Positions 6,118 through 48,095 of a DNA stretch of 64,000 bases are shown here, in pieces; within the stretch, counting starts at the first letter, position 1, and each line of letters begins with the position of its first letter. The DNA is from an uncultured Flavobacteriales bacterium (GTDB lineage: Bacteria; Bacteroidota; Bacteroidia; Palsa-965). Both the position numbers and the translations under genes were made by a program. Below the pieces are notes generated by a model, which was not told the DNA's origin, made no database searches, and saw only the letters and a list, made by a program, of their open reading frames with translations. The stretch spans positions 96,490-160,489 of the forward strand of contig CAIQQJ010000131.1 in the NCBI GenBank assembly GCA_903873905.1. The letters are read 5' to 3'.

Positions 6118-6118
6118 T

Positions 6119-7513
6119 TTACAGAATTATTCCTCTTAATAATAAAATAGAAACAGTAAAATAAATTACCAGTCCGGTTACATCCACCAAGGTTGCCACA
6201 AATGGTGCAGAAGAAACTGCAGGATCCAATCCCACGCGTTTCAATAACAATGGAAGCAAAGAACCCGTTAATGTTCCCCAAAGCACAACTCCTACCAATG
6301 CAACACCAACCGTAATTCCTATAATCATCCAATGCGGTCCATAGTCCTGAACGAAATTCGACCACAATGCCACACGACAAAACCCGATTACACCAAGAAT
6401 AATTCCCAGCACTAATCCAGATTGAAATTCTTTCTTCATGATTTTCCACCAATCGCGCACAGTGATTTCTCCAAGTGCAAGCGCGCGAATAATAAGTGAA
6501 GTTGCTTGTGAACCACTGTTTCCTCCACTGGAAATAATCAAAGGAACAAAAATTGCGAGAATAACAGCTTTTGCAATTTGATCTTGAAAAAATGACATTG
6601 CAGTTGCTGTCAACGTTTCTCCAACGAAAAGAATTACCAACCAACCAACACGTTTGCGAATCATTTGCCAAAATGGTGTGGCCATGTAGGGTTCTTCCAA
6701 GGCTTCCACAGCACCCATCTTCTGCGCATCTTCAGTATTCTCTTCCCGAATCACATCAACCATGTCATCGAAAGTGATTCTTCCAACAAGACGATTCAAA
6801 CTATCAACAACTGGAATTACAACAAGATCATATTTGTCCATCAACATCGCCACTTCCTCTGCAGGCGTGTTTGTTTTTACACTGATAAAATCTGGAATGT
6901 AAACTTCAATAATTGGTGTTCGCAGATTTTTCGTAAGCAAACTTTTCAATGATAAAAGTCCAACAAGTTTTTCATCATCATCAACAACGTAAATCGTATA
7001 AATGTTTTTTACCTCATCTGCTTGATTTCGAATTTCACGAATGCATTCCCAAACATTTTTATTCAAATGCACTTTCACCAACTCTTTCGCCATTACACCA
7101 CCGGCAGAATCTTCGTCGTAATTTAACAGATCAACAATGTCGCTGGCTTGGTCAACGTCTTCAACGTGGGAAAGGACTTCATCTTGTTGCTCATCCGAAA
7201 GTTCCGAAAGTACATCCGCTGCATCATCCGATTGCAGATTATCAATGAGCTGCTCTGCAATTTCTTTTGAAGAAAGTCCTTCAAGAATTTTTTCACGAAT
7301 GTCATCTTCAAGTAAAAGCAACGTTTCCGCAGCAACTTCTTCATCGAGAAATTTATATGCAGCAACTGCCTCCTCCTCTTCAAGGTCATTGAGAACTTCC
7401 GCCACATCGGCAGGATGCATTTCGTAGAAAATTTCACGCAATCGTTCTCCTTCACCTGCTTCAAGAGCGTGGCGAACGGTATCTAAAAACGAATCCGAGA
7501 TTTGAAATGACAT
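6119..7513 (-). CDS. mgtE: magnesium transporter MgtE
   Basis: 464 aa. The architecture is an MgtE N-domain, a CBS pair and a C-terminal transmembrane domain with acidic residues. Confidence 0.9.
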   Translation of the reverse strand: MSFQISDSFLDTVRHALEAGEGERLREIFYEMHPADVAEVLNDLEEEEAVAAYKFLDEEVAAETLLLLEDDIREKILEGLSSKEIAEQLIDNLQSDDAADVLSELSDEQQDEVLSHVEDVDQASDIVDLLNYDEDSAGGVMAKELVKVHLNKNVWECIREIRNQADEVKNIYTIYVVDDDEKLVGLLSLKSLLTKNLRTPIIEVYIPDFISVKTNTPAEEVAMLMDKYDLVVIPVVDSLNRLVGRITFDDMVDVIREENTEDAQKMGAVEALEEPYMATPFWQMIRKRVGWLVILFVGETLTATAMSFFQDQIAKAVILAIFVPLIISSGGNSGSQATSLIIRALALGEITVRDWWKIMKKEFQSGLVLGIILGVIGFCRVALWSNFVQDYGPHWMIIGITVGVALVGVVLWGTLTGSLLPLLLKRVGLDPAVSSAPFVATLVDVTGLVIYFTVSILLLRGIIL

Positions 7514-31738: not shown

Positions 31739-32134
31739 ATGAAATCATTTTATTTTACTTTTCTAATTCTAGGTCTCTGTTTATTTTCCTGTAAACATCA
31801 ACCCGTAAACATTCCACATCATTCCACAAATGAATGCGACACTTTGAACGTTTCCTATTCAACAACTGTAAAACCAATTTTGTTGGGCAACTGTTATAAT
31901 TGCCATTCTACCTACTACGCAACAACAACTGGCGCACTTGATTTGGAAGATTGGAGTTCTCTTAAAAATTATCTCACATATACTTATCGCGGAGATAGTA
32001 TTTACGGTTCGAAATTTTATCATTCAATCAAACAAGTCGGACTCATTCAACCCATGCCTCCTGCGGGAAAACTTACAGATTGCGAAATTTCAAAAATTCA
32101 TTCCTGGATTATCTCAGGAGCACCTGCAAATTAA
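31739..32134 (+). CDS. small lipoprotein with CxxCH motif (PSCyt1-like cytochrome c-type domain)
   Basis: The lipobox is LFSC. The segment VKPILLGNCYNCHST...GALDLEDW matches the PSCyt1-type pattern (KPIL..C..CH....G.L.L). It sits directly upstream of a TonB-dependent receptor. Confidence 0.5.
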   Translation: MKSFYFTFLILGLCLFSCKHQPVNIPHHSTNECDTLNVSYSTTVKPILLGNCYNCHSTYYATTTGALDLEDWSSLKNYLTYTYRGDSIYGSKFYHSIKQVGLIQPMPPAGKLTDCEISKIHSWIISGAPAN

Positions 32135-32229
32135 AAAACCCAAACATCATTTTTTCAATATTCGTTTTCAATAAACATTTCAGAAGAAATACTTTTAAAA
32201 AAGCCTATTACAAGAAATCCGCCCTGTCA

Positions 32230-35091
32230 ATGAAAACTTTTTACATACTATTTCTTTTTTCAATCCTAACTTTTCTGTCTAATTCTTCTTTTGCACAAGT
32301 TGCACCGCAAACTGTAACTATTAGCGGAACCGTTTCCGATCAGAAGACAAGTGAATTATTAGGTGGAGTAATTGTATTTCTTGAAGGAACTGCGAAAGGT
32401 GCCGTAACCGATTTCGATGGAAAATACGAAGTGAAAAACATTACACCAGGAACTTATCGTTTACGTTTTTCAATGATCAATTATAAAACACAATTTATTG
32501 AAGGAATCGAAATTAAAGAGGGAACAAAAAATAGCGTGGTGAATGTTGTGATGGAACCATCTGTTTTCGAAGGTTCGGAAGTAGTAATTAAAGATGTTCG
32601 CAGAACTAATACAGAAGCAAGTGTTGTCAATGAAATTCACGAGGCAAAAGCTGTTGTGAGTGGTGTATCAGGCGCGCAAGCACAAAAATCGCAGGATGCT
32701 GATGCAGGCGCGGTTGTAAAACGTATACCCGGCGTAACCATCATTGACAATCGTTTCATTATGGTTCGCGGATTGAATGAGCGCTACAATTCCGTTTGGT
32801 TGAATGATGCAGGAGCTCCTAGTATGGAAACAGATAAACGCGCTTTTTCATTCGAGATGATTCCAACTGGAATGCTCGACAGAATTTTGATTTTCAAAAC
32901 TCCTTCACCTGAATTGCCTGCAGATTTCGCTGGAGGAATGGTGAAAATTTACACCAAAGCATTTCCAGACAAAAGAATGATTGCTGTTTCTTATTTAACA
33001 TCCGATCGTTCAGGAACAACATTCAAACCATTTGCCTCAACGCAAGGAAGTTCAACAGACAAGTGGGGATTTGATAATGGTTTTCGTTCAATGCCTGCAA
33101 GTGCCCCAGAATATTTCAATCACAGTGATGCTCAAAACAATGCTCAAACCAAGGCATTTCAGAATGATTGGGGAATAAATAATAAATCAGCAATGCCTGA
33201 TCAACGTTTCAGCATTATGTATGCACAGCCTTTTCACTTGAAAAAAGGAATGCTGCTTGGCAATACATTCGGAGTAAGTTATTCCAATACATTTTCATCC
33301 TACACTGTTCATCGTCAGGATTGGGATTCGCTCGTTCAAATGCAGGATTATTCAGATGCGCAAAGCACACACACAATAAGGACAAATGCAATTGAAAACT
33401 TCTCCATGCTTTTCGGGAACAATAAACTAGAATTTAAAAATTTGATTAATCAGCAGGGACGAGAATGGGTAACACAACGCGTCAGTAATTTTGAGAATGG
33501 TCCGAATGAAAAAGCATTTGTGGAAGGATACGAAAGCAGATTAATTTATTCTTCACAACTATGCGGCGATCACAAATCTAAAACAGGAAATACAGAATAC
33601 AATTGGTCTGCTGGATATGCTTACACAGAAAGAAACGCTCCAGATTTGCGCAGAATAAAATATACGAAAGCACGTACCGCTCCAGACTCGATGTATTCTG
33701 CTGCCATTGCAAATGTTGTTGATCCAGTAAATGGCGGCGGAAGATTTTACGCATGGCAAAACGAAAGAATGTTTTCATTCAACCAGAATTTTAGGCAAAC
33801 AATTTACATCGGGAAAAAAGATTCAATTGATAAACGATATCATTTCATTTTGAATATTGGAACTTATGCAGAATATAAATCAAGACAATTCATTGCACGT
33901 GTGTTGGGTTACACCATCAATCCAGGAGCATTGGCATTTGATTTAAAACGTTTGCCACTTGACCAGATTTTCGCTGACCAGCATGTTGGAATTCCCGGCG
34001 GATTCAAAATGGATGAAATTACCAGCGCTTCAGATAAATACCAAGCGCAAAACACGCAGATGGCCGGATATATTTCTGCTGATCTTCCAATTGGAAAAAA
34101 AATTGAAGTCATAGGTGGTGCACGTTATGAATACAATCAACAAGCACTACAGAGTTTTGTAAATATTGATAGTATAAGTCCGATGGTAAACACACGTTTT
34201 TTGTTGCCATCCGTGAATGCAACTTATAATTTCACTGATAAATCATTACTGCGTTTGGCATATGGAAAAACTGTCAATCGTCCAGAATTTCGTGAGTGGT
34301 CGCCATTTTATTTTTATGACTTTGATTTTAATGCGGGAACATATGGTTCACTATATCCATCAGTTATTGCGGAGCACGGGCAAATTCTCAAAGTTGCACA
34401 AGTTGACAATTACGATTGTCGTTTTGAATATTACCCAGGTTTTGCGGACCTCATTCAGGTTGGTGTTTTTTACAAATCATTCATTAATCCAATTCAGCAA
34501 ATCATTCTTCCATCTGGTGGAACTGACAGTCGTGCATTTTCATTTACCAATGGCGACAAGGCAACTGTTGAAGGGATTGAATTTGACATGCGAAAAAATC
34601 TTTCTGGAATTGATTCTTTGTTGAACACCAGTATTTTCGGAGACTTCAGCATTGTTGCAAATTTTTCATTGATAAAAAGCAAATTGCAAATTTCTCAAGT
34701 AATCAATCAGGCAACATCAAATCCATTGCAGGGGCAATCGCCGTATGTTGTGAATGGTGGCCTTTATTATCAAAATGATTCCATTGGATTACAGGCCAAT
34801 CTCCTTTATAATGTTTTTGGTCCGCGACTTTTTCTTGTTGGAACATTGGATTATGCGAATATCGGTGAGCTTCCTAAACCATCTTTGGATTTTACGGTTT
34901 CACAAAAAATTTGGAAATCATTTTCAGTGACTTTTGGAATTCAAGACATCCTGAATAAACCCGTTCGACTTGTTCAAGACACGAATCGTAATGGGAAATT
35001 TGAAAAAAATGGCAATGATAAAGAAATCATGTCATACAAACGTGGATCCTATTTCACTTTTGGAATTCGAATGAATCTTTCCGGAAAATAA
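32230..35091 (+). CDS. TonB-dependent outer-membrane receptor with N-terminal carboxypeptidase-regulatory-like domain
   Basis: Signal peptide MKTFYILFLFSILTFLSNSSFA, then a CarbopepD_reg domain, a plug and a long barrel. The C-terminus ends in an aromatic (FTFGIRMNLSGK). Confidence 0.85.
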   Translation: MKTFYILFLFSILTFLSNSSFAQVAPQTVTISGTVSDQKTSELLGGVIVFLEGTAKGAVTDFDGKYEVKNITPGTYRLRFSMINYKTQFIEGIEIKEGTKNSVVNVVMEPSVFEGSEVVIKDVRRTNTEASVVNEIHEAKAVVSGVSGAQAQKSQDADAGAVVKRIPGVTIIDNRFIMVRGLNERYNSVWLNDAGAPSMETDKRAFSFEMIPTGMLDRILIFKTPSPELPADFAGGMVKIYTKAFPDKRMIAVSYLTSDRSGTTFKPFASTQGSSTDKWGFDNGFRSMPASAPEYFNHSDAQNNAQTKAFQNDWGINNKSAMPDQRFSIMYAQPFHLKKGMLLGNTFGVSYSNTFSSYTVHRQDWDSLVQMQDYSDAQSTHTIRTNAIENFSMLFGNNKLEFKNLINQQGREWVTQRVSNFENGPNEKAFVEGYESRLIYSSQLCGDHKSKTGNTEYNWSAGYAYTERNAPDLRRIKYTKARTAPDSMYSAAIANVVDPVNGGGRFYAWQNERMFSFNQNFRQTIYIGKKDSIDKRYHFILNIGTYAEYKSRQFIARVLGYTINPGALAFDLKRLPLDQIFADQHVGIPGGFKMDEITSASDKYQAQNTQMAGYISADLPIGKKIEVIGGARYEYNQQALQSFVNIDSISPMVNTRFLLPSVNATYNFTDKSLLRLAYGKTVNRPEFREWSPFYFYDFDFNAGTYGSLYPSVIAEHGQILKVAQVDNYDCRFEYYPGFADLIQVGVFYKSFINPIQQIILPSGGTDSRAFSFTNGDKATVEGIEFDMRKNLSGIDSLLNTSIFGDFSIVANFSLIKSKLQISQVINQATSNPLQGQSPYVVNGGLYYQNDSIGLQANLLYNVFGPRLFLVGTLDYANIGELPKPSLDFTVSQKIWKSFSVTFGIQDILNKPVRLVQDTNRNGKFEKNGNDKEIMSYKRGSYFTFGIRMNLSGK

Positions 35092-35342
35092 AAACTCGTT
35101 TTTCGATTTCAAAAATCAGATTTCGAAACAAAACACGTGTTACCTCAGCGTAACGACACGGAAATATTTTCTTTACAAACGCGGCTTCAACTTAACACTG
35201 CAAACGCATTAATCCCTCAATAGGTTAATGATGCGGCAAAATGCGGGTAATAATGCACAGATACATTTGTCCTGAATTAATAGAAGCAAAATTTACACAC
35301 AACCGCAAAAAGAAAAACAAAACTGAAAATCAAAAAAACAAA

Positions 35343-38300
35343 ATGAAAAGAAAACCATTACTCAAAATTGGAATTTTCCTGTCAATGCTAATAGCTGGCG
35401 TTTCAGGAAATACCTTGACGGCACAAAACGTCATAAATGTTCAGGACAGTATTTTTACAAATACACATTGGACAGCATGCAATCAGTATCTTTTGTTCGG
35501 TTATGTTTATGTAACAGCAGGACATACCTTGACTATCGATCCAGGAACAATTATTAAAGGTGATAAGAATACAAAAGGAACACTTATCATTGAGCGCGGA
35601 GCTACAATCATTGCTCAAGGAACAGTAGCTCAACCAATCGTATTTACCTCAAATCAGCCAATGGGAAATCGTACCTATGGCGATTGGGGTGGAGTAATTA
35701 TTTGTGGAAGAGCAGCAACAAATTGGCTTGCTGGACAACAACAGGTTGAAGGTGGACCACGTTCATTGTATGGAGGAAATCTTCCACACGATAACTCAGG
35801 TGTATTTTCATATTGCCGAATTGAATTTGGTGGTGTTGCTTTTTCTCCAAACAATGAAGTAAATGGTCTTACACTTTGTAGTGTTGGAGATGGAACAGTA
35901 TTGAATCACATTCAAGTTTCCTATTCTGGTGATGATTCATTCGAATGGTTCGGTGGAACATGTAACCTAAAATATATTGTTGCTTACAGAGGTTGGGATG
36001 ATGATTTCGACCAAGATTGCGGATGGAGAGGGCACGTACAATTTGCATTCGGTCTTCGCGATCCTTATGCAGCTGACGTATCCGGTTCAAAAGGAATGGA
36101 AATGGACAGCTACCAATCAGGTACAAAAACAGGATTAGCTGGAGATACTTCTGGTTGCACAATGCCAGTTTGGTCAAACGTTACTCTTGTTGGTCCAATG
36201 GTTAGTCCAACATCAACAGCTTATGATCCACAATTCGTTGCGGGAATTCACTCTCGTCGTGGAAACGGAACAAGTATTTTGAATTCGGTTATTGTCGGTT
36301 ATCCTTGTGGTGTTCTGTTTGATGAATCTTCTTCTTCATTCGGTTCAACTACACGTAACCTTGACATTCTTGGTTCAGCAGGAGATTCAATCATGCAATA
36401 TCGTGGTGATATCATTTGTGGAATTCCAACCATCAATACACCAACAAGAAAAGAAGTTGAATATGTAATCAATGCAGCACGCTCACTTACTCCAACAAGC
36501 GTTGAAGCAGATACAACAACTGGAACACCTTTTGCTCCAGCATCCGGTCCATTCAACTTTTTGCAGACATCCTCCTACCAAAATCATCTTTACGCAACAG
36601 AACAAACAGGAATTGCATTGCACAGCCCTTTCAACTTGGCCAATCCTGATCCGACACCAACCAGTGTTTCTGTTATTTGTTACAATTCAAAAACACTTGC
36701 ATCTATGCCTGGTGCACAATACACACGTTTTCTAGCGCATTATGGAAATTCGAATCCTTTCAGTAACGGAAGCGTATTCCCATTCAATCCAGCATTGCCA
36801 CTCAATACTGACACAACACAATGGTTGTCACATTACAATGCTCCAACAGCTTATCCAGTTTGGAACAGTGGTCGTGTTACAGCTGCAAATGGATTCTTCA
36901 CACCAACAAATTATGTTGGCGCTTTTGCAGGAACACAATCTACCAATGACAATTGGATGAACGGATGGTGTAATTTCAATCCAGTAAATACAGATTATTC
37001 CTTGACATCTGCTCCATTGGCTACTATTACTGCTGCTGGTTCAATTGTTATTTGTGCAACTGGTGGATCTGCAGTTTTAAATGCAAATTCTGGTTCTGGT
37101 TATACTTACCAATGGACATTAAACAATGTCAACATCAATGGTGCTACAACTCAGTCTTACAATGCAATTGTTGCAGGTTCTTATAAAGTAATCGTATCAA
37201 ATGCAACAGGATGTTCTACAACTTCTGCTCCTATTGTTGTTACTTCTTATGCACCCGCAATCTCAACAATCACTGCAGGTGGCCCAGTAACTTTCTGTCA
37301 AGGTGGAAATGTAACACTGACTGCTAATAATGCGTCTGCCTATAGCTGGAGCAATGGAGCAACAACACCATCCGTTTCTGCAAATACATCCGGAAATTAT
37401 TTGGTAACAATTACAGATGCAAATGGTTGTCAAGCGACTTCAGTTGCAACTGTTGTAACTGTGAATTCATTGCCAACTGCAAACATCACAGCAAGTGGAT
37501 CAACTACTTTCTGTATTGGTGACAGTGTAATTTTAACTGCAAATACTTCTACTTCTTATTTGTGGAGCAATTCTGCAACAACACAAAGCATCACTGTTTA
37601 CAATTCAGGTAACTATTCAGTTCAAGTTACGAATGCAAACGGATGTCAGTCTGCAGCTTCTTCAGCAATAACAGTTTCTGCAAGTTCATCACCTGCACCA
37701 ACTATCACAATCACAGGTAACACTTCACTTTGTCAAGGAAATACAGTAACACTTACTGCATCTAATTCTGACACCTACTTGTGGAGCAATTCTGCAACAA
37801 CACAAACAATTACAGTTGGCGCTTCTGGAACATACAACGTTACTGTTACAAACAGCAATGCTTGCAATGGAACAGGTGTTTCTTCAAATGTAATTGTAAC
37901 TGTTCACCCACTTCCAGTTGCGAGTTATACAACATCTGGAGTAATTCCTTCTGTAAATTTCAGTAACACTTCTACTGGTGCAAATACTTACATGTGGGAT
38001 TTCGGTGACTTCAGTACTTCATCACAAACAAGTCCAACACATACTTATTCAGGAAATGGTTCTTACAATGTTTGTCTAACAGCCATCACATCATTCGGTT
38101 GTGCTGATACAACTTGCGCACCATCACTGATCAACGTAGGTATCAACCAAGTTCAACCTGAATTGGAAAACACAATTCTTTATCCAAATCCTGCAACAGA
38201 GGAATTGAATATTGCAATGAATGTTCTTCAAGACAAAGACGTACAAGTTGTAGCTTACGATTGCACAGGAAAATTGATGATCAATGAAAATCGTTCACTC

Positions 38301-38417
38301 ACAAGTGGAAATAACATCTTCACATATGATGTTACCAATTGGGATAACGGAATTTACTTCGTACGTGTTACAGCAGGAACAACTGTGAACACAATGAAAG
38401 TAATGATCAACAGATAA
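35343..38417 (+). CDS. T9SS cargo surface protein: N-terminal beta-helix-like domain, about 7 SprB-type/Ig-like repeats, PKD domain, type-A T9SS C-terminal domain
   Basis: Start at MKRKPLLKIGIFLSMLIAG. The repeats are about 75 aa each (C..G..V.LTA......Y.WSN.ATT..I.V...G.Y.V.VT.ANGC). The PKD-like part is YMWDFGDFSTSS...SYNVCL. The tail is LYPNPATEELNIAM...GIYFVRV. Confidence 0.8.
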   Translation: MKRKPLLKIGIFLSMLIAGVSGNTLTAQNVINVQDSIFTNTHWTACNQYLLFGYVYVTAGHTLTIDPGTIIKGDKNTKGTLIIERGATIIAQGTVAQPIVFTSNQPMGNRTYGDWGGVIICGRAATNWLAGQQQVEGGPRSLYGGNLPHDNSGVFSYCRIEFGGVAFSPNNEVNGLTLCSVGDGTVLNHIQVSYSGDDSFEWFGGTCNLKYIVAYRGWDDDFDQDCGWRGHVQFAFGLRDPYAADVSGSKGMEMDSYQSGTKTGLAGDTSGCTMPVWSNVTLVGPMVSPTSTAYDPQFVAGIHSRRGNGTSILNSVIVGYPCGVLFDESSSSFGSTTRNLDILGSAGDSIMQYRGDIICGIPTINTPTRKEVEYVINAARSLTPTSVEADTTTGTPFAPASGPFNFLQTSSYQNHLYATEQTGIALHSPFNLANPDPTPTSVSVICYNSKTLASMPGAQYTRFLAHYGNSNPFSNGSVFPFNPALPLNTDTTQWLSHYNAPTAYPVWNSGRVTAANGFFTPTNYVGAFAGTQSTNDNWMNGWCNFNPVNTDYSLTSAPLATITAAGSIVICATGGSAVLNANSGSGYTYQWTLNNVNINGATTQSYNAIVAGSYKVIVSNATGCSTTSAPIVVTSYAPAISTITAGGPVTFCQGGNVTLTANNASAYSWSNGATTPSVSANTSGNYLVTITDANGCQATSVATVVTVNSLPTANITASGSTTFCIGDSVILTANTSTSYLWSNSATTQSITVYNSGNYSVQVTNANGCQSAASSAITVSASSSPAPTITITGNTSLCQGNTVTLTASNSDTYLWSNSATTQTITVGASGTYNVTVTNSNACNGTGVSSNVIVTVHPLPVASYTTSGVIPSVNFSNTSTGANTYMWDFGDFSTSSQTSPTHTYSGNGSYNVCLTAITSFGCADTTCAPSLINVGINQVQPELENTILYPNPATEELNIAMNVLQDKDVQVVAYDCTGKLMINENRSLTSGNNIFTYDVTNWDNGIYFVRVTAGTTVNTMKVMINR

Positions 38418-38495: not shown

Positions 38496-38647
38496 TATGA
38501 TGCTGATTGTTTATTGAAAAAAGACAGACCCTTCAAATTCCAAAATGGGCATGAGTACTATTTTCAATCAACAATAAAATAGAATCCTAACCTCCTCATA
38601 ATACTCAGACCATATTGAAACTTTACGTTTGCTTAAAGATTCCGACC

Positions 38648-39082
38648 ATGAACAAACAAGAAATAAAAATCCTCATCGTTGATGATGAGCCTGACATTAG
38701 GGAATTTGTTTCCTACAATCTTTTCAGAAGAGGCTACACTGTCATCACTGCGGCCGATGGAAAAGAAGGTTATGATCTGGCTTTGGAATTCAAACCAAAT
38801 CTTATTATCCTTGACGTTTTGATGCCGGTAATGAACGGATATGAAACGTGCATTCGTTTACGCAAGAATCCAATTTTCGATCAGACTAAGATTATTTTTC
38901 TTTCCGCATTAAACGAATCAACCGCAAAGGATCTTGGATTGGAATTAGAGGCAGATGCATTTATTGGAAAACCAATTAGAATAGAATTGTTGGTAAAACG
39001 AATTGAGCTTTGGTTGAAGACTTCCATTCCTGTCCCTGTGATTTCACCAAACTACAAACCAGCACAAGGACTCGGCAACTAG
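38648..39082 (+). CDS. single-domain response regulator (CheY-like receiver only); truncated paralog of the RR at 30684..31364
   Basis: Start at MNKQEIKILIVDDEPDIREFVSYNL. It is about 60% identical by eye to the receiver of the upstream PhoB-like RR. The ORF has no output domain. Confidence 0.8.
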   Translation: MNKQEIKILIVDDEPDIREFVSYNLFRRGYTVITAADGKEGYDLALEFKPNLIILDVLMPVMNGYETCIRLRKNPIFDQTKIIFLSALNESTAKDLGLELEADAFIGKPIRIELLVKRIELWLKTSIPVPVISPNYKPAQGLGN

Positions 39083-39196: not shown

Positions 39197-40150
39197 TTGA
39201 ATGCTTTTCATCAAAAGCAATTAAGAAACGTGAACATTGAATTGACTTACATCACACAACATGTTAATGTAAACGTTATTTCTCCTTCATCTTCCCTTGA
39301 CACAGAAGAGGGAAATTTGTTCAACAAAAACAAGGTGAACAAAAAACGATACAAAACAATTATTCTTTCAGATCTCCACCTGGGCACATCGACCTCCAAA
39401 GCGAAAGAAGTAAATCATTTTCTCAAACATCACAAGTGCGAAACACTCATCCTTAATGGAGATATTATTGATGGTTGGCAATTGAAAAAATCAGGTGAGT
39501 GGAAAAAGCAACACACCAAATTTTTCAAGCTTGTTCTAAAGCGTGCTTCAAAAGGAACAAAAATTATATATATCCGTGGCAATCATGATGATTTTCTAGA
39601 TGAAGTTCTTCCCTTTACAATGGGAAACTTTTCAATTCGCTTAGAGTATTATTTGCAATCAGGAAATAAAAAATATTATGTAGTGCATGGTGACATTTTC
39701 GATATGGTCACCACCAAATTGAAATGGCTGGCAAAACTTGGGGATGTTAGTTACACCTTTTTACTTTGGCTGAACAAACATTACAACAAACGTAGAGAAA
39801 GGCGCGGTCAACCTTACTATTCGCTTTCACAAGTCATCAAGGCAAAAGTCAAAAGCGCCGTCAGTTTCATTTCAGATTTCGAAACACAATTAGCTTCTGT
39901 TGCGAAAAAGAAAAACTGTGATGGGGTGATTTGCGGACACATTCACACACCCGCAAATAAAATGATAGGAGATATTCATTACCTCAACAGTGGTGACTGG
40001 GTAGAATCCTTAACAGCCCTAGTAGAAACATTTGAAGGAGAATGGAAAATAATTCATTACACAGAATGGCTTAATGAATTGAAGATGCAATTATCATATG
40101 AAGTGGAAGAGTCAACGGATAACATTCGTGAACTAACAAATAATTACTGA
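39197..40150 (+). CDS. LpxH-family metallophosphoesterase (UDP-2,3-diacylglucosamine pyrophosphatase-like)
   Basis: Motifs SDLHLG, GDIIDGW, GNHDD, HGD, GHIH and SGDW align with E. coli LpxH (ADLHL/GDLFEAW/GNRDF/HGD/GHTH/LGAW). The true start may be an internal GTG near 39335 (..VNKKRYKTIILSD). Confidence 0.7.
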   Translation: MNAFHQKQLRNVNIELTYITQHVNVNVISPSSSLDTEEGNLFNKNKVNKKRYKTIILSDLHLGTSTSKAKEVNHFLKHHKCETLILNGDIIDGWQLKKSGEWKKQHTKFFKLVLKRASKGTKIIYIRGNHDDFLDEVLPFTMGNFSIRLEYYLQSGNKKYYVVHGDIFDMVTTKLKWLAKLGDVSYTFLLWLNKHYNKRRERRGQPYYSLSQVIKAKVKSAVSFISDFETQLASVAKKKNCDGVICGHIHTPANKMIGDIHYLNSGDWVESLTALVETFEGEWKIIHYTEWLNELKMQLSYEVEESTDNIRELTNNY

Positions 40151-40151
40151 C

Positions 40152-41294
40152 ATGAAATCAAAAGTTCTATTTGTCGTACAAGGAGAAGGCCGTGGGCACA
40201 TGACGCAAGCGATTTCATTGCGGCAAATTCTCGAAAAAAATGGATTTGAAATTTGTGGTGCAATTGTGGGCACGAGTGAAAGGAGAACTATTCCTGATTT
40301 TTTTCACAAACAATTTTCAGGGATTCCTGTTGTGAGAATGCAAAGTCCAAATTTCGTTACAAAAAATAATCGTGGAATCAATATTGGAGCAACGGTTTGG
40401 CGCAACTTTGTTCGATTCGGAACGTACATTAAATCGGCGAATTTATTAAAACAAAAAGTTGCTGAATGGAATCCTGAAATTATTATCAACTTCTATGAAC
40501 CGATTGTCGGGTTGTATGCAAAAACAACTCACAAAAGCAAAAGACCACCCATCGTTTGCATCGCCCACCAATATCTTGGAGAACATCCTGATTTTGTTTT
40601 CCCAAAAGGCCATGCTATGGATCGAATTTTTCTAAAAAACTACACAAGCTTAACTTCTTCAGGAGCAGAAAGGATTCTCGCCTTGTCTTTTTCGCCAATG
40701 GGATATTCCGGTTATGAAAAATTAAAAGTTGTTCCGCCACTGCTACGGCAAGAAATAAAAACATTGTCGGTAAATAAGCGTGGCTATTATCTCTGCTACC
40801 TTGTCAATGCTGGATATCGAGATGATATAGAAAACTGGCACAAGAAAAATCCCGGCATCTGTTTGCATGTGTTCACTGACATGGAAACGGAAAAAGAATT
40901 CATTGAAGTGCATGAAAATCTTTTCTTTCACAAATTGAGTGATACCAAATTTCTAGAATACATGTCAGGTTGTAATGGTTTGATAAGCACTGCTGGCTTT
41001 GAATCCGTCTGTGAGGCATTTTATCTTGATAAACCTGTTTTTATGGTTCCTGTTGAAGGACAATTCGAACAATTGTGTAATGGTTTGGATGCTCAGCGTG
41101 CAGGAGTTGGAATTTATGATTTGAAATTTGATATTGGAAAGTTTTTGGATTGGTTGCCTAATCACAAATCTCAATCAAAAGCATTTCATCAATGGGAATC
41201 ATACGCGGAAAAACATTTCGTCAAAAATTTCAACGAAGTGCTCGAGGCAAATGCTCCGGCAGATCCGCTTACCTCCGAACTTCTTCCAGTTTAA
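40152..41294 (+). CDS. MGDG-synthase/UgtP-like glycosyltransferase (GT28 family)
   Basis: N-terminal VQGEGRGHMTQA resembles UgtP TANYGNGHVQVA. C-terminal GLISTAGFESVCEA...VPVEGQFEQLCNGL resembles UgtP KPGGITLTEA...PVPGQEKENANF. It begins 1 nt after the LpxH-like stop. Confidence 0.7.
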   Translation: MKSKVLFVVQGEGRGHMTQAISLRQILEKNGFEICGAIVGTSERRTIPDFFHKQFSGIPVVRMQSPNFVTKNNRGINIGATVWRNFVRFGTYIKSANLLKQKVAEWNPEIIINFYEPIVGLYAKTTHKSKRPPIVCIAHQYLGEHPDFVFPKGHAMDRIFLKNYTSLTSSGAERILALSFSPMGYSGYEKLKVVPPLLRQEIKTLSVNKRGYYLCYLVNAGYRDDIENWHKKNPGICLHVFTDMETEKEFIEVHENLFFHKLSDTKFLEYMSGCNGLISTAGFESVCEAFYLDKPVFMVPVEGQFEQLCNGLDAQRAGVGIYDLKFDIGKFLDWLPNHKSQSKAFHQWESYAEKHFVKNFNEVLEANAPADPLTSELLPV

Positions 41295-41335
41295 AAAGAA
41301 CATTACTCCTTCCTATTTTCACTTACTTCCCAAAT

Positions 41336-42226
41336 ATGAATCGCAAGAGAATTGCTTTTGTCATTAACCCGAATTCCGGTAGCGACAAGAAAACGGATCG
41401 TGTTAAACTCATTCGCAGCCTGATCAATTATTCTTACGACAGTGAAATTATTCTTTGGAAAAATATTTCCGATCGTGATGAAATTTTTCAAAATGTAAGT
41501 ACTGGTGAATTTGACATTGCCGTTGCAGTTGGAGGTGATGGAACAGTAAGTCAATTGGCGGAAGTATTATGTGAAACGGACGTTGCGCTTGGAATTATTC
41601 CTTTCGGATCTGGAAATGGACTTGCTCGTCATTTGGGAATACCACTGAAGCCAGCAGCTGCGATGAAATTATTGGAAACAGGCGTTGTAAAGAAAATTGA
41701 TCGTGGACGAATAAATAATCGTTCATTTTTCTGCACAGCAGGTGTTGGCTTTGATGCACGCATCGGAAAATTATTTGCCGAAAGTGAGACGCGAGGATTT
41801 TGGACATATGGAAAAATGACCTTGTCGGAATTTCGCTCTTACAAAGCGGAAAATTATTCAATAGAGATTGACGGAAAGAAACTTGAAAGGACTGCATTTC
41901 TGATGACCATCGCTAATGCAGGACAATATGGAAACAATGCATGGATTGCCCCAAAGGCAAATGTTGCAGATGAAATTTTACATTTTTCTATTTTACTTCC
42001 ATTCCGATGGTGGAATATGGTTGGTATCGCTGGGAAAATGTTTGGGAAAAAACTAGATACATCTCGCTTTCTAGAAAGTTTTACTGGAAAGAAAATTACC
42101 ATTACGAGAAAGTCAGAAGGCGCAATTCATTATGACGGCGAACCTGATTTTATGGGAACAGAATTGATTGCCTCTATTGACTCTGCTGCATTGAATGTGG
42201 TAGTGCCAAATAATTTCAAAGGCTGA
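41336..42226 (+). CDS. DgkB/YegS-family lipid kinase (DAGK_cat domain)
   Basis: Start at MNRKRIAFVINPNSG. Motifs GGDGT and GSGNGLAR align with B. subtilis DgkB. Confidence 0.8.
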   Translation: MNRKRIAFVINPNSGSDKKTDRVKLIRSLINYSYDSEIILWKNISDRDEIFQNVSTGEFDIAVAVGGDGTVSQLAEVLCETDVALGIIPFGSGNGLARHLGIPLKPAAAMKLLETGVVKKIDRGRINNRSFFCTAGVGFDARIGKLFAESETRGFWTYGKMTLSEFRSYKAENYSIEIDGKKLERTAFLMTIANAGQYGNNAWIAPKANVADEILHFSILLPFRWWNMVGIAGKMFGKKLDTSRFLESFTGKKITITRKSEGAIHYDGEPDFMGTELIASIDSAALNVVVPNNFKG

Positions 42227-42241
42227 TTTTCAAAACCATTT

Positions 42242-42658
42242 TCAGCTGTTGGAATAGAGCGCAAGCAAATGATTTTCTGAATCACAGAAGAGTGCATAAT
42301 ATCCACTTTTGTGGTCAATCATTGTTTTCGCAATAATTGTTGCTCCGTCCTTGTTTGTGTTTCTAATCAATGATTTAGGTTGTATTATTTTACCACCAAA
42401 ACTTTCAACACGTTCTAGGACAAGTCCCATATCTGACTCAACTTTAAAAAACAATACAGGACCTGGTCCTTGGCAAATGATTTCCTTGCTCTCTACAAGT
42501 GAAATAGACAAGTGCTCGTTAAGCTTTGATATCGCATGTCTCCTACCTTCAAAACTCTGGTGGTTAAAAATAAGACCTAGCACCTTACCATAAAAAACTA
42601 CGGCATTATCGAAATCGTTGACTGGAATTTCAATCCAAGGAATCTGCGTGATTTTCAT
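42242..42658 (-). CDS. VOC/glyoxalase-family protein
   Basis: 138 aa. N-terminal MKITQIPWIEIPVNDFDNAVVFYGKVLG is a typical glyoxalase fold opening. Confidence 0.6.
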   Translation of the reverse strand: MKITQIPWIEIPVNDFDNAVVFYGKVLGLIFNHQSFEGRRHAISKLNEHLSISLVESKEIICQGPGPVLFFKVESDMGLVLERVESFGGKIIQPKSLIRNTNKDGATIIAKTMIDHKSGYYALFCDSENHLLALYSNS

Positions 42659-42672
42659 AACAATTGTTCTAG

Positions 42673-43488
42673 CTAAAAATTAATTCCGATAAAACTGACA
42701 TCATCCGTTTGAACTGTATTCTGTTTCCAGTCATTGAAAATTTCTACAAAAAAAATGCATTGCTCATCAAGTGACATATGCGATGAATTGGAAATTATCT
42801 CCCCAATCCTTTTGCGTGAGAACTTTTTCCTGTTCATTCCATTGTATTGGTGTTTCAATCCATCAGAAAAAAGATAGATCCGATCACCTTCCTTGATTTC
42901 TCTCTTGATGGTCTTGAAAGATCGGTTCTTCTCGATTTGCCAGCCACCAATTGGATAACTATTACCTCTCAGTAACTCTATTTTCTTTTGATTACAGAAA
43001 TAGAATTCTCCATTTGCTGAGGAATATTGAAATTCTTTCGTGGCCGGATTGTATGAACACAAGGTAATTTCCATCCAATCATTATTGAAATCAATATCCT
43101 TGTTCTCATCATTAAAAGTTTCAATCCACTTCTTGTCAAGTTCTGTAAGATAATCGCCAAGATTATCAAAATTTTTATTGATGACATAATTCAACAAACT
43201 TATTCCCAAAACACTGAGCATAGCCCCACCAATTCCATGTCCCGTGCAATCAGCCAATGCAAAATAGTATACACCATTCTTTTCAGTAAGCCAATAAAAA
43301 TCACCACCGATGATTTGTTGTGGCTGGTAATAAACAAAATGATCTGAGAAAGCTGCTTCAAAATGTCTGTCCTTCGGCAACAATCCCTTTTGAATGGTAG
43401 AAGCATAAATAATACCATGCTGAAACTGGTTAATCGTTTCCCGCAACATAGAGTCTTTGTGTTTGGATAATAGTTTCATCATCATCAT
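42673..43488 (-). CDS. standalone PP2C/SpoIIE-type serine/threonine phosphatase
   Basis: 271 aa. Metal-binding motifs GGDFY, ADCTGHG, SDG and DDV(S) are present. There is no sensory or receiver domain. Confidence 0.8.
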   Translation of the reverse strand: MMMMKLLSKHKDSMLRETINQFQHGIIYASTIQKGLLPKDRHFEAAFSDHFVYYQPQQIIGGDFYWLTEKNGVYYFALADCTGHGIGGAMLSVLGISLLNYVINKNFDNLGDYLTELDKKWIETFNDENKDIDFNNDWMEITLCSYNPATKEFQYSSANGEFYFCNQKKIELLRGNSYPIGGWQIEKNRSFKTIKREIKEGDRIYLFSDGLKHQYNGMNRKKFSRKRIGEIISNSSHMSLDEQCIFFVEIFNDWKQNTVQTDDVSFIGINF

Positions 43489-43577: not shown

Positions 43578-45932
43578 TTATTTCAAGAGTGTCAAGTAAC
43601 CCGTGAGATTGTATTTTTTATTGTCAAATCCAATAGCATTCAAAACATAATAATATGTTCCATCTGTTGCAATGTTGCCAGATGTTGTTCGTCCGTCCCA
43701 ACCAATCAACGGACTTTCACTCGCAAAAAGCAAGGCTCCCCAACGATCAAATATTTGCAATTTAAATTCCCTGATTCCAATTGTTGAAACAAAGAAATTA
43801 TCATTCACTCCATCAGCATTTGGTGTGAAAACATTTGGAATCGTTACCAAAGAAGGAATATCATTTACAACAATGGTTGCAATTGCGGTGTCTGAACATC
43901 CAGCAGCATCACTTGCGGTGAGAATGACAACAAAAGTTCCCGGAGTATTATAACTATAAGAAGGATTTATGCTGTTACTTCCCGCGCTGTTGTCTCCGAA
44001 ATTCCATTGCCAAGTTGTAACATTGGACGAACTGCTATTCGTAAAGTTGACAGGAAGTGGTGAAATACCAGTATAAACATTGGCAAAAAAACCAGCATTC
44101 ACCTGATCAACGTTTACTGTTAGAAAGGAAGTGTCAACACCACAGGCATTACTTGCAATCACAAAATAATTTCCTTGCGCGGTGACGATGATGGAATTAC
44201 TTGTTGCTCCATTACTCCACAAAAAATTATTCGCACCAGATGCTGTTAGCGTTGCACTATCGCCATTACAAATAAAAGCGCTTCCACTTATTACAGCAAC
44301 GGGATTAGGCTGAATTGTTATTGAAATTTGCGCAGAATCTGTCCCACAACTATTCGTTGCAGTAACAATATAATTTCCAGCAGCGCCAACATATATCGAA
44401 GAGCTTGTTGGGCCAGAACTCCAAGAATAAGAGTTTCCACCCGAAGCAATAAGTTGAACTGAATCGCCTTGACAAATTGATGTTGGGCCGTTTGCTATTA
44501 TGCTTGCGTTGGGTAAAGGGAGAACGTTTACGGCAATTGTTTGTGTATCACTTCCACAAGTTGTGCTAACTGTTACCGTATAAGTTCCTGCAGTAGTAAC
44601 CGTAATAGAAGGCGTGCTTGCACTTGTATTCCACAAATAATTATTTCCTCCTGATGCAGAAAGTGTAACATTCCCTCCAACACAAAAAGTAGTTGGACCG
44701 CTAGCAGAAATTTGTGCAACAGGAAGTGGTAAGACATTCACAGTAATTGCTTCTGTATCATTTCCACATGTGTTCGTTGCCATCACGGTATAAGTTCCCG
44801 CTGCATTAACGGTAATTGCAGAAGTTGTTGCTGTATTGCTCCATAAATAAGATGTTCCTCCGCTTGCTGTCAATGTTACATTTCCTCCTGTACAAAATGT
44901 TGTTGGTCCACCTGCTGCAATTTGTGCGATAGCAGCAGGAATGACATTGATAGAAACTGTTGTTGTCGCAGAATCATTGCAAACACCGTGAACAGAAAAA
45001 GTAAGAACTGTATTTCCATTGTCACCTGCTCCAGCTGTGTAAACTGTATTGGCAGAATTTGCGGGAGAAAAAAAGCCTGTACCACCTGACCAATGCACAG
45101 AAGAAAAACTTCCTGATGCTGTTCCTGAAAGATTTATTGTTCCATTGCTGCATACATTTCCTCCGCCAGTTGCAAAAGCCGCTAATGGAACAAATGGAGC
45201 TTGGCATCCATAATTGACATAGGTGGCTATAGGTGTCCCTGGCCAACTAAACAATACCGTGGCTCCATCATTTTGCGCCGAGGAGCCGCCATAAGTTCCC
45301 AAAACATTTACAAGCAATGCGCGATCATAGGTAACAGTATCACTACAACCAGATGGCGTATATCGCATGATCAATGTTCGTGTTGAAGATGCACCAGTTG
45401 GAATAGTTGTGATCGTGGCAGTATTATTTGTATTGGCAAAATGTCCTTGGAAATTATTGGGATTTTGAAAAATAAGATAAAGTGTATCCGTAAGATTTGT
45501 AAATGAATTTGCAGTGACGCACATATCTGTTGAGCTGATCAACAATACCTCTTTTCCTGCAGGAATTATTCCACCCACTGGTTCCACGAGATGACCACAA
45601 CTCATAATGGTTGCATTGAGTTGTGAAGTCAATTGTGCTGTAAGAGCATTCTGAACAAGACCTTGATAAGTATTATTTGGCCAAGTAATTGAAATACCCG
45701 TGATGTTAATCGCACTGGGTCCGGTTCTGAAACGAACCATTTCATTTTTTCCTTCGCAATTACAAGCGGGACTTGCAGAGTTTGTGCATCCCGATCCAGG
45801 AACGCATGCGTCAACAAGAATACTTTCTATTTCAAAACATTTAGCTGGAATCTGCGCAGACAAATTTGCTGCGAAGAAAATCAGGACAGATAAAATTGTA
45901 ATTCTTCTAAGAGATAAATTGAAAGTGCGCAT
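43578..45932 (-). CDS. T9SS cargo adhesin with about 5 SprB-type repeats, PKD domain and type-B (gliding-motility-associated) C-terminal domain
   Basis: Start at MRTFNLSLRRITILSVLIFFAANLSAQ. The repeats read AAGGPTTFCTGGNVTLTASGG.SYLWS...T.T.TN.CG. The PKD part is WQWNFGDNSAG. The C-terminus FTPNADGVNDNF...GTYYYVL matches TIGR04131. Confidence 0.8.
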   Translation of the reverse strand: MRTFNLSLRRITILSVLIFFAANLSAQIPAKCFEIESILVDACVPGSGCTNSASPACNCEGKNEMVRFRTGPSAINITGISITWPNNTYQGLVQNALTAQLTSQLNATIMSCGHLVEPVGGIIPAGKEVLLISSTDMCVTANSFTNLTDTLYLIFQNPNNFQGHFANTNNTATITTIPTGASSTRTLIMRYTPSGCSDTVTYDRALLVNVLGTYGGSSAQNDGATVLFSWPGTPIATYVNYGCQAPFVPLAAFATGGGNVCSNGTINLSGTASGSFSSVHWSGGTGFFSPANSANTVYTAGAGDNGNTVLTFSVHGVCNDSATTTVSINVIPAAIAQIAAGGPTTFCTGGNVTLTASGGTSYLWSNTATTSAITVNAAGTYTVMATNTCGNDTEAITVNVLPLPVAQISASGPTTFCVGGNVTLSASGGNNYLWNTSASTPSITVTTAGTYTVTVSTTCGSDTQTIAVNVLPLPNASIIANGPTSICQGDSVQLIASGGNSYSWSSGPTSSSIYVGAAGNYIVTATNSCGTDSAQISITIQPNPVAVISGSAFICNGDSATLTASGANNFLWSNGATSNSIIVTAQGNYFVIASNACGVDTSFLTVNVDQVNAGFFANVYTGISPLPVNFTNSSSSNVTTWQWNFGDNSAGSNSINPSYSYNTPGTFVVILTASDAAGCSDTAIATIVVNDIPSLVTIPNVFTPNADGVNDNFFVSTIGIREFKLQIFDRWGALLFASESPLIGWDGRTTSGNIATDGTYYYVLNAIGFDNKKYNLTGYLTLLK

Positions 45933-46338
45933 GTTTAAGTTTTTTCCCGACAAAGTGAGCATCAGATATTATTACTGAAAAACTTGAAGAGGTTAAAGAA
46001 TCTATTGGGAAAAAGAAACTTATAGGATATTCACTTCAATAGTTCAAAAGTAAATAATTAGTGTTTCGGGGAGTTTATTTTGGGGTTATGTTATTGACTT
46101 AACAAGCTGATTTGTGATATATCATCCTATTTTTCCTTGCACCAGCAAAAAGATCGTGAAAGTACACGAAAGGAAAAGTGTAATTAGCAAGGTGATGACA
46201 TGAATCTTCTCGATTCGATCACTTCTGAGTAATAGTACAAGCTTTTTCATTTGGGAATTTGGGGTTATTTTGTAAAAAAAACTAATTTCCTTTTCAGATA
46301 GCTTTTCAAATCTTCAGCTTACAAACCATATTGGTTTT

Positions 46339-46775: not shown

Positions 46776-48095
46776 TTACAAAACAATTTTTCTGGAAATA
46801 GTATTCCACTTATTGCTACAACGCACAATATAAACTCCATGCGACCATGAACGCGTTTCAATTTTTCCACTACCCGATGGAATATTTTTCTCATCATAAA
46901 TGATTCTCCCGGAAATGTCCATGATCTGCAAATCAAAATTCTCTTCACTATTAACCTGATAATTCAATACTTCATCTGCAGCATAAAACCATGTAGCGAA
47001 TTTTTCGACTTGTTGGAAATTAACAGCAACAATGGAACTAACTTTAGTATCACCATTATAATCAGTTTGGCGAAGTCGGTAATAATTGACACCAATTCCC
47101 GGCTCGTAATCTATAGTTTCATAATAATGTTGTTGTGAACTGGTGCCACTGCCATTCACATTGGAAATAGCTTGAAACGGATCACCGTTTACTGAACGCT
47201 CCACTGTGAAGAAATTGTTATTCGTTTCACTCGATGTAATCCAATTCAAATCAACTGAATTTTTATTCGCAGAAGTTGCAGTGAAATTTAGAAGATTGAT
47301 TGGAAGAACAGTTGTACAAGCATTATCTGAATTGGCCGTCACATGCACGTTATCAATGGCCATGTGAGGATCATTACTACCATTGTTCGCGTCCCACCAA
47401 CGCAACATTAAATAATTATTGATTGGCACATTTACTGGAATACAAACAGAAATGTGACCACTTACAGTTCCCGGGTAACTACTGATTTGATTTGAAGAAG
47501 CCGTTGCGCTATTATTGGGAGCGGTGTAATTTGCTGTTACAACATTAGTATACGTATGAGCATTATTTGGAAGATCCGCTGAAGTTAAATTAGAGGAACT
47601 CACGAAATAAGACAAAAAATTCACGTTCGGATTATTACCATTTTCTGCAAGAGACAATTGATACCAATCGAAATCGACACTAATGGAAACTATGGGAAGC
47701 CCAAAATTATTCCGCAAACACAAACCCAATCCAATTCCACGTTGCCCATTAACACCAGGAATGTCAGGACCACCAGAATTATTAGATGGCCTTGTACCCA
47801 ACTTCATGTCCGTTCCACCATTGATTTGATAAACAGCCCAACCTCCAGCATTTGGTGGAACTGCAGCTGTAATATTTATCGTTGCACGAAATGGATCAGT
47901 TCCAGCAGCTGTAATTTGGTAACTCGTAGCATACCACCCAAGAAAAGTTGAATTATCTGTCCATGTAAGAACAGAGGAAGTTCCAAAATTCTGTGAATAG
48001 TTCCCTGCAGAAAATGTTGCTTGCGCATCACTTTTATGATTGCAGAAAATCAAAAACATTATTAGAAATAGAAAAAGTTTTTCCCTTTTTATCAT
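46776..48095 (-). CDS. T9SS type-A cargo protein of unknown function
   Basis: 439 aa with a signal peptide. The C-terminal beta sandwich (GVYIVRCSNKWNTISRKIVL) is Por_Secre_tail-like. Confidence 0.7.
   Translation of the reverse strand: MIKREKLFLFLIMFLIFCNHKSDAQATFSAGNYSQNFGTSSVLTWTDNSTFLGWYATSYQITAAGTDPFRATINITAAVPPNAGGWAVYQINGGTDMKLGTRPSNNSGGPDIPGVNGQRGIGLGLCLRNNFGLPIVSISVDFDWYQLSLAENGNNPNVNFLSYFVSSSNLTSADLPNNAHTYTNVVTANYTAPNNSATASSNQISSYPGTVSGHISVCIPVNVPINNYLMLRWWDANNGSNDPHMAIDNVHVTANSDNACTTVLPINLLNFTATSANKNSVDLNWITSSETNNNFFTVERSVNGDPFQAISNVNGSGTSSQQHYYETIDYEPGIGVNYYRLRQTDYNGDTKVSSIVAVNFQQVEKFATWFYAADEVLNYQVNSEENFDLQIMDISGRIIYDEKNIPSGSGKIETRSWSHGVYIVRCSNKWNTISRKIVL

Follow-up and report, generated by a model that had tools for sequence, protein, structure and literature searches.

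Positions 39197 to 42226 of a 64-kb stretch of contig CAIQQJ010000131.1, from an uncultured Flavobacteriales bacterium (the window in what follows), carry a cassette of three genes: a PlcP/LpxH2-type metallophosphoesterase (MPE, gene 1), a glycosyltransferase (GT, gene 2) with a predicted GT-B fold from the PF13528/TIGR00661 (MJ1255/VC2487) family, and a soluble DAGK_cat/YegS_C lipid kinase (gene 3). The reading favoured here, with slightly more confidence than doubt, is that the cassette is a Bacteroidota version of the renovation of phospholipid via diacylglycerol to glycolipid, with the kinase handling diacylglycerol. It is favoured because gene 1 groups with validated PlcPs, the MPE and GT genes are linked, and their order is the plcP-then-glycosyltransferase order of PlcP-Agt operons. 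What the data show directly is which families genes 1 and 3 belong to, which fold class gene 2 has, and that the MPE-GT linkage is conserved.

In the proposed mechanism, gene 1 would be a PlcP-type, Mn-dependent, cytoplasmic and membrane-peripheral phospholipase C that acts on a membrane glycerophospholipid, in Bacteroidota probably phosphatidylethanolamine, and releases diacylglycerol by splitting off the phosphorylated head group. Gene 2, which would be translationally coupled to gene 1 (1-nt gap), is proposed to be an inverting GT-B enzyme of GT1-like type, with a UDP-sugar as donor and the released diacylglycerol as acceptor. This would yield a glycosyl-diacylglycerol that contains no phosphorus and is probably β-linked. 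Where gene 3 is present, it might convert diacylglycerol to phosphatidic acid, by which the pool would be buffered or fed back to phospholipid synthesis. Substrates, sugar, anomeric configuration, kinase role and inducing condition are given here as we infer them. The original prediction, made from the DNA letters alone, had suggested among other options that the trio makes or remodels a glycosyl-diacylglycerol; this is the best-supported reading, and a lipid-directed cassette is supported. A wider claim, that PF13528/TIGR00661 is a new family of glycosyltransferases that act on lipids (diacylglycerol or ceramide) with inversion and are used with a PlcP-type phospholipase and often a lipid kinase for an unreported glycolipid, is possible and is held with somewhat more doubt than confidence.

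Gene 1 and the distinction between PlcP and LpxH

Gene 1 (positions 39335 to 40150, + strand) is a predicted intracellular phospholipase C of 271 amino acids (aa) when read from GTG 39335. The maximal open reading frame (ORF 1, 39197-40150, +) starts at TTG 39197. GTG 39335 is probably the true start, because homologs are about 270-280 aa long and a promoter-like motif, described below, lies inside the longer ORF.

The only Pfam match of gene 1 is Metallophos (59 bits). On the two LpxH equivalog hidden Markov models (HMMs) the cut-offs are not reached: 45.2 bits on NF003743/PRK05340 (cut-off 134) and 22.9 bits on TIGR01854 (cut-off 190.35), at most about one third of the required scores. Validated PlcPs give 55/44 and 38/39 bits on these models, and gene 1 is comparable at 45/23. 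Pairwise identity is 43% (205 bits) to PA3219 of Pseudomonas aeruginosa and 41% (190 bits) to SMc00171 of Sinorhizobium meliloti, both validated PlcPs, against 21% (32 bits) to Escherichia coli LpxH. A neighbour-joining (NJ) tree that includes 129 representative relatives places gene 1 in the PlcP clade with the validated members. On these sequence comparisons, gene 1 is a member of the PlcP/‘LpxH2’ clade and a predicted phospholipase C, not the lipid A enzyme LpxH. The original prediction had called it LpxH-family; superfamily and fold stand, and the specific enzyme is contradicted by the HMM scores, the low identity and the tree.

Gene 1 resembles LpxH in superfamily, in its calcineurin-like core with a helical lid and in its metal-binding motifs. 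The motif set that had been quoted for it (SDLHLG, GDIID, GNHD, HGD and GHIH) is complete and aligned with that of PlcPs; it is the generic set of calcineurin-like phosphoesterases and contains no LpxH signature. The blocks GDI(I/V)DGW, GNHD(D/E)FL, YWS(L/F)S and GDWVES are common to gene 1 and PlcPs and are not found in LpxH. In block 3, gene 1 reads GNHD where LpxH of E. coli and Klebsiella reads GNRD (PMC3087551). GNRD is not a universal LpxH mark; the LpxH-like paralog of Bacteroidales also reads GNHD. An older comparative study gave the name ‘LpxH2’ to a paralog in which His replaces Arg in block 3, and it cites Babinski et al. for the failure of P. aeruginosa LpxH2 to complement E. coli lpxH (PMC3087551). 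The AF2 (AlphaFold2) model of gene 1 (pLDDT 82.7) shows the calcineurin-like core and the lid, the insertion being formed by helices 121-192, and its top 25 Foldseek matches are all LpxH structures. PlcP presumably shares the lid, which would then not separate LpxH from PlcP.

The two PlcP references were taken from a tblastn search of a plasmid collection in which pieces of chromosomes are filed as plasmids. In the P. aeruginosa record (L082) a 270-aa gene is followed by a glycosyltransferase gene and then by a gene with an adenylate/guanylate cyclase domain; the position of the last matches that of cyaB (PA3217), and the locus is PA3219-PA3218 (PlcP-Agt1). In the S. meliloti record (L083) a 281-aa gene lies beside genes for an acyl-homoserine-lactone synthase and a LuxR-type regulator, which we take to be sinI and sinR, and the reference is SMc00171, the founding PlcP. 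Between the two references the identity is 46.6%; the published identity of PA3219 and SMc00171 is 46% (PMC8528852), and the agreement therefore confirms the identity of both. Several records of this collection (L081, L086, L087, L082 and L083) are in fact chromosomes, whole or in pieces, under a plasmid label, e.g. ‘plasmid 23’ and ‘plasmid 45’ of Parabacteroides distasonis TSDC17.2-1.1, a 3.7-Mb S. meliloti ‘pSymB’, and L087, which is Bacteroides finegoldii. In the misfiled records the PlcP-like and LpxH-like paralogs bear one name, ‘UDP-2,3-diacylglucosamine diphosphatase’.

A housekeeping role of gene 1 was checked because Porphyromonas gingivalis had been scored with only ‘LpxH2’ in the comparative study (PMC3087551). 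With E. coli LpxH as query against the plasmid collection, a different protein was matched in P. distasonis, B. finegoldii and Phocaeicola. In the two contexts inspected (P. distasonis and B. finegoldii) this LpxH-like paralog has a conserved radC/Fe-S protein neighbourhood, and in P. distasonis it lies on the same 388-kb record as lpxB. It scores 77-92 bits on the LpxH models and falls outside the PlcP clade in the NJ tree. The same P. distasonis strain has an ortholog of gene 1 (61% identical) whose gene overlaps a TIGR00661-type glycosyltransferase gene by 4 bp. P. distasonis thus carries both paralogs, and gene 1 of the window is therefore the PlcP-type one. The candidate role of gene 1 as housekeeping LpxH was rejected on the HMM scores, the pairwise identity, the tree and this second paralog. 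NCBI and JGI name the gene 1 orthologs ‘UDP-2,3-diacylglucosamine diphosphatase/LpxH’, which looks like over-annotation.

Fusion proteins connect the same clade to glycosyltransferases. Of the 25 representative relatives most similar to gene 1, five (P0244, P0245, P0248, P0250 and P0263; 564-663 aa) are fusions of an N-terminal GT4 glycosyltransferase and a C-terminal PlcP-clade phosphoesterase, the latter part being 47-53% identical to gene 1. They are strong independent evidence that this phosphoesterase clade acts together with a glycosyltransferase.

The glycosyltransferase and the lipid kinase

Gene 2 (positions 40152 to 41294, + strand) matches PF13528 (Glyco_trans_1_3) in Pfam at 123.5 bits (threshold 25). 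On the TIGR00661 model it scores 92.6 bits, below the cut-off of 195.9; JGI labels its orthologs ‘TIGR00661 family’. The Pfam search of gene 2 gave no match to PF06925 (MGDG_synth) or PF04101 (Glyco_tran_28_C), and in the many orthologs that do match PF04101 it is only a secondary match, flagged weak where graded. A test for GT4 yielded PF13439 only, at 17.3 bits and under its cut-off of 28.5; P. aeruginosa Agt1 gives GT4-type matches. The AF2 model is confident (pLDDT 93), and the closest predicted folds are GT1 UDP-glycosyltransferases (Bacillus subtilis YojK/YjiC, yeast UGT51 and OleD) at 11-15% identity; the closest solved fold in the fold search is not GT28. Matches of the family profile to Protein Data Bank (PDB) sequences are confined to the UDP-sugar motif of GT1 UDP-glycosyltransferases. 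Gene 2 had been described as a UgtP/MGDG-synthase-like GT28 enzyme, with placement outside GT28 by HMMs named as what would speak against it; the HMMs place it outside GT28 and its fold is nearest GT1, so this assignment fails. Both a UgtP/MGD1-like GT28 enzyme and an Agt-like GT4 enzyme were rejected as candidates on the Pfam, profile-versus-PDB and fold searches.

Gene 2 has 5864 matches, nearly all from Bacteroidota among the matches listed, and the annotations of its relatives go no further than ‘uncharacterized protein (TIGR00661 family)’ or ‘glycosyltransferase family protein’. Invariant in the family are G-x-G-R-G-H16, AGFES-x-CEA and E306-Q307. Like the GT1 enzymes YojK/YjiC, UGT51 and OleD, gene 2 has the donor-binding motif and an N-terminal G-loop ending in His; it differs from them in its low identity and in its context beside a lipid phosphodiesterase and a lipid kinase. 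Gene 2 is predicted to be an inverting, UDP-sugar-dependent GT-B enzyme. This reading of the invariant residues presumes that they work as is generally known of GT1 and GT28 enzymes.

Gene 3 (positions 41336 to 42226, + strand) encodes 296 aa from ATG 41336. Its maximal ORF opens at 41192; homologs are about 296 aa long and align from residue 1 of the ATG 41336 version. It matches PF00781 (DAGK_cat, 88 bits) and PF19279 (YegS_C, 63.9 bits) and scores 108.2 bits on TIGR00147, slightly under the cut-off of 118.65. AVGGDGT contains the GGDGT nucleotide loop, and YDGEPD the C-terminal DGE motif. Relatives in the PDB are 4wer, 3s40, BmrU (3t5p), DgkB (2qv7) and YegS, with about equal similarity to DgkB, BmrU and YegS. 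By family and motifs, gene 3 belongs with the DAGK_cat/YegS-type lipid kinases. A soluble DgkB/YegS-family kinase had been predicted from the start, and the two Pfam families confirm the family; that gene 3 is a diacylglycerol kinase is proposed.

The original prediction also noted that the gene order mirrors the lipid A steps LpxH, LpxB and LpxK, and held that genes 2 and 3 are not LpxB/LpxK orthologs. The second point is borne out, as neither gene matches LpxB (PF02684) or LpxK models. The mirror itself finds no support: beside this lack of matches, canonical lpxB is encoded separately, 2-3 kb from the cassette in the closest relatives. The candidate role of the glycosyltransferase and the kinase as replacements of LpxB and LpxK was rejected on the same grounds. 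Within the window, no lpxH, lpxI, lpxB or lpxK was found.

Gene linkage, surroundings and the upstream motif

The gaps are 1 nt between genes 1 and 2 and 41 nt between genes 2 and 3 (with ATG 41336), and the ORFs on the + strand bear out the tight, co-directional spacing first described. No terminator-like site was seen between the three cassette genes, and the next gene (42242-42658) lies on the opposite strand.

The linkage sample consists of 80 species-representative loci fetched via the glycosyltransferase and numbered from L001. An MPE gene occurs with the GT gene in 42 of the 80, across several orders, and is directly upstream of it in 39 of the 42. Carriers of the pair include Bacteroidia metagenome-assembled genomes (MAGs), Chitinophagaceae, Bacteroidales, Emticicia, Arundinibacter and Rhodothermales. 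The kinase joins the MPE-GT locus in 25 of 80: in 16 it follows closely in the same direction, and in 7 it lies divergently on the upstream side of the pair. It directly neighbours MPE-GT in 24 of the 80 GT-anchored loci. This clustering of the cassette genes is far beyond chance. Synteny of the trio in relatives, the check proposed with the original prediction, holds for the pair in 42 loci and extends to the kinase in only 25.

The window and its closest relative, L001, have different flanks and an intact trio. Seven look-ups anchored on the kinase found the trio in three and the kinase alone in four. The flanks of L093 and L094 are the same, lpxB-x-surE-hsp20 and, at the opposite end, NlpC/P60-GH114-smpB; the pair occurs in L093 only, and L094 has the kinase and lacks MPE-GT. 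The MPE-GT pair behaves here as a two-gene insertion or deletion. Because the kinase is often alone and these two loci differ in MPE-GT only, the tight unit is the MPE-GT pair, with the kinase as a frequent optional neighbour.

Upstream of gene 1, the promoter-like motif AAATTTGTTCAAC (39313 to 39325, + strand) lies 15 nt before GTG 39335, inside the longer ORF. It resembles the Bacteroidota -7 box (TAnnTTTG) with a conserved extension. TTTG[TC]AAA occurs just upstream of the MPE start in 17 of 43 MPE-bearing loci (L003, L005, L006, L010, L015, L021, L028, L031, L041, L048, L055, L060, L073, L074, L080, L092 and L093), where shuffled sequences give an expectation of 0.29. The fuller form, TTTG[TC]AAAAC(C), stands 10-16 nt before the MPE start codon, which is often GTG or TTG. 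The motif AAATTTGTTCAAC may act as a promoter, and from its position near the start codon the leader would be very short.

By analogy with other Bacteroidetes, phosphate limitation is suggested as the inducing condition. In Dokdonia, a flavobacterium, plcP is induced under phosphorus starvation. In Flavobacterium johnsoniae, depletion of inorganic phosphate raises PlcP (Fjoh_4577) by a log2 value of 8.6 and a PF04101 glycosyl transferase (Fjoh_0541) by 5.4 (PMC8115612). A link to the phosphate (Pho) regulon through neighbouring genes gained no support: response regulators near the GT gene score 190-218 bits against PhoB cut-offs of 270-296, and in the window the regulator before the cassette consists of a receiver domain alone. 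Considered as a possible Pho box, the upstream motif resembles a general promoter box.

Other neighbours were recorded as side observations. A stand-alone receiver-domain gene (38615-39082) lies directly upstream of the cassette in the window. Large proteins of a secreted type surround it, and there is a TonB-dependent-receptor-like ORF as well (32080-35091 (+), 35241-38417 (+), 43578-45962 (-) and 46776-48095 (-)); judged from the translations, the large proteins carry Ig-like repeats, and their C-terminal regions are of the kind seen in type IX secretion cargo. In several loci, the first to third gene after the cassette encodes a SpoIIE/PP2C-type phosphatase (SiaA-like, 117 bits) (42673-43488, - strand, in the window; L010:9815-10552; L074:10864-11595; L095:5773-7938). 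In Bacteroidales-type loci, the type IX secretion gene porQ is directly downstream of the GT gene (L046:7216-8268, L013, L014, L019, L023, L029, L056 and L068); the L046 copy matches NF033711 at 405 bits, and the others were assigned by sequence clustering. Genes resembling cmk and ispH follow porQ in at least L013 and L023.

In Cytophagales (Ekhidna, Marinoscillum and Cyclobacteriaceae) the GT gene has no adjacent MPE gene, and genes for an NtrC-type regulator and a histidine kinase lie upstream of it. It is followed, sometimes with a bestrophin gene between, by a gene for a conserved 347-aa protein (L047:1906-2949) that has homologs in 23 loci (e.g. L024:8040-9083 and L057:8050-9093) and no Pfam or NCBIfam match. 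These neighbours (regulator and histidine kinase, bestrophin, 347-aa protein) were considered as a functional clue and yielded none.

Proposed lipid renovation and competing explanations

The PlcP-Agt systems used for comparison are those of S. meliloti (SMc00171), Phaeobacter MED193, SAR11 HTCC7211, P. aeruginosa (PA3219-PA3218) and Methylosinus OB3b. In validated PlcP-Agt operons plcP precedes the glycosyltransferase gene (PMC4796936, PMC8528852, PMC9239053). The cassette is like these proteobacterial systems in an MPE 41-43% identical to validated PlcPs, in a co-directional GT gene directly after it and in the proposed route from phospholipid through diacylglycerol to glycolipid. It differs from them in that its glycosyltransferase is of the GT1-like PF13528/TIGR00661 type (predicted inverting) where Agt is GT4 (retaining), and in that a DAGK_cat lipid kinase is often attached to it; Pho regulation of the cassette is putative. 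With the GT28 diacylglycerol glycosyltransferases UgtP/YpfP and plant MGD1, and with DgkB of Gram-positive bacteria, the cassette shares a proposed diacylglycerol-acting inverting GT-B enzyme and a soluble DAGK_cat kinase that could recycle diacylglycerol.

PlcP beside an ‘uncharacterised glycosyltransferase’ was tabulated in about 40 Bacteroidetes genomes in 2016 (Table S2, PMC4796936), and the MPE-GT pair is therefore not new as an observation. The original prediction had called the combination a pathway not known to be described. This fails for the pair, since PlcP-glycosyltransferase renovation is well established and the pair had been listed; it holds in that neither the link to the kinase nor a characterisation of the GT family was found. 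Literature searches found no mention of the kinase association, and on a characterised glycosyl-diacylglycerol synthase of Bacteroidota or further mention of Fjoh_0541/Fjoh_4577 they gave nothing beyond PMC8115612.

Several observations weigh against the lipid renovation reading. Among the loci and the window neighbours, no Pho-regulon gene and no identifiable PhoB/PhoR lies beside the cassette. Phosphorus-starved Dokdonia accumulated aminolipids, and a glycolipid was not reported; Fjoh_4577 and Fjoh_0541 are only putative orthologs of the window genes. The MPE is conserved to a degree unusual for an enzyme needed only under stress, with mostly 58-87% identity across orders and two outliers (39% and 46%). 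No characterised member of the PF13528/TIGR00661 family was found in the literature, and the nearest glycosyltransferase structures are GT1 enzymes whose acceptors are sterols, polyketides and flavonoids. The pair can do without the kinase (P. distasonis and Chitinophagaceae), which also stands alone in four of the seven kinase-anchored look-ups; the link of the kinase may be lineage synteny. Two observations point towards lipid A. Genes for lpxB, a 100-aa ORF, surE and hsp20 divergently adjoin MPE-GT-kinase in six related loci (L093, L001, L002, L003, L005 and L092), and L094 has them beside the kinase without MPE-GT. In L039, a Flammeovirgaceae MAG, the GT gene (6004-7077) is preceded by an LpxH-like paralog (5158-5937) and not by a PlcP-like gene; that paralog is 45% identical to the LpxH-like protein of P. 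distasonis, and the case is one in 80.

Because the nearest structures are GT1 enzymes for such molecules, gene 2 could act on another lipophile (a carotenoid, a flexirubin-type pigment, a hopanoid- or sterol-like lipid, or a polyprenol), and its linkage to the phosphoesterase would then stem from another common pathway, in which the phosphoesterase strips phosphate or diphosphate from a precursor of the acceptor. The top structural matches act on small hydrophobic molecules, the profile matches the GT1 UDP-sugar motif only, and the Cytophagales GT genes stand without an MPE beside a two-component system, bestrophin and the 347-aa protein. Against this stand the clear PlcP-clade membership of gene 1, the GT4-PlcP fusions and PlcP-Agt operons that point to diacylglycerol as the shared intermediate, and the lack of any recurrent pigment or isoprenoid gene by the pair save ispH downstream of PorQ in Bacteroidales-type loci, so that we consider this unlikely. 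A sphingolipid variant is rated as distinctly unlikely. In it, a PlcP-like enzyme would remove the phospho-head group from a ceramide phospholipid (e.g. ceramide phosphoethanolamine), the glycosyltransferase would make glycosylceramide, and the kinase would be a ceramide kinase. Bacteroidales produce sphingolipids, kinases of ceramide and of sphingosine are among the DAGK_cat enzymes, and the ceramide galactosyltransferase of animals belongs to GT1; the pair is present in P. distasonis, and the fold of gene 2 is nearest GT1 enzymes, including a sterol glucosyltransferase. However, the cassette is spread over many Bacteroidota lineages, sphingolipid synthesis genes recur in none of the 80 loci, and all validated PlcPs act on glycerophospholipids (PMC4796936, PMC8528852).

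A lipid A-related function is very improbable. Gene 1 would then be an isozyme of UDP-2,3-diacylglucosamine diphosphatase, and the glycosyltransferase and kinase would assemble or modify a glycolipid resembling lipid A. The database names of the orthologs, the best match of the predicted fold to LpxH, the lpxB-x-surE-hsp20 genes divergently adjacent in six related loci, the LpxH-like paralog before the L039 GT gene and the scoring of P. gingivalis with ‘LpxH2’ only all fit it. It is opposed by LpxH scores far under the cut-offs at 21% identity, by the reported failure of P. aeruginosa LpxH2 in complementation (Babinski et al., as cited in PMC3087551), by the separate and better LpxH candidate of Bacteroidales (in the lpxB record in P. 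distasonis), and by genes 2 and 3, which match neither PF02684 nor LpxK. The lpxB neighbourhood is also absent from the window and persists in L094, which has no MPE-GT. That the three genes are mere neighbours without a common pathway is given hardly any weight. The kinase found alone in the kinase-anchored look-ups and the 38 of 80 loci in which the MPE is not adjacent to the GT gene would agree with it. The adjacency of MPE and GT across orders, with 1-nt gaps or 4-bp overlaps, the fusions that join the same two enzyme classes, and the trio kept intact between the window and its closest relative despite differing flanks speak against it.

If lipid renovation is the correct reading, a large uncharacterised glycosyltransferase family would gain a testable function. 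PlcP-type renovation, which has so far been genetically demonstrated only in Proteobacteria, would reach Bacteroidota with another class of glycosyltransferase and a kinase. Bacteroidota, including P. distasonis of the human gut, would make a so far unreported glycolipid, and many ‘LpxH’ annotations would be wrong. Such an annotation error matters for the reconstruction of lipid A pathways and for LpxH-directed antibiotics, as the other paralog is the better LpxH candidate, at least in Bacteroidales. The presence of the MPE-GT pair in P. distasonis, a culturable human gut species, makes the question directly testable.

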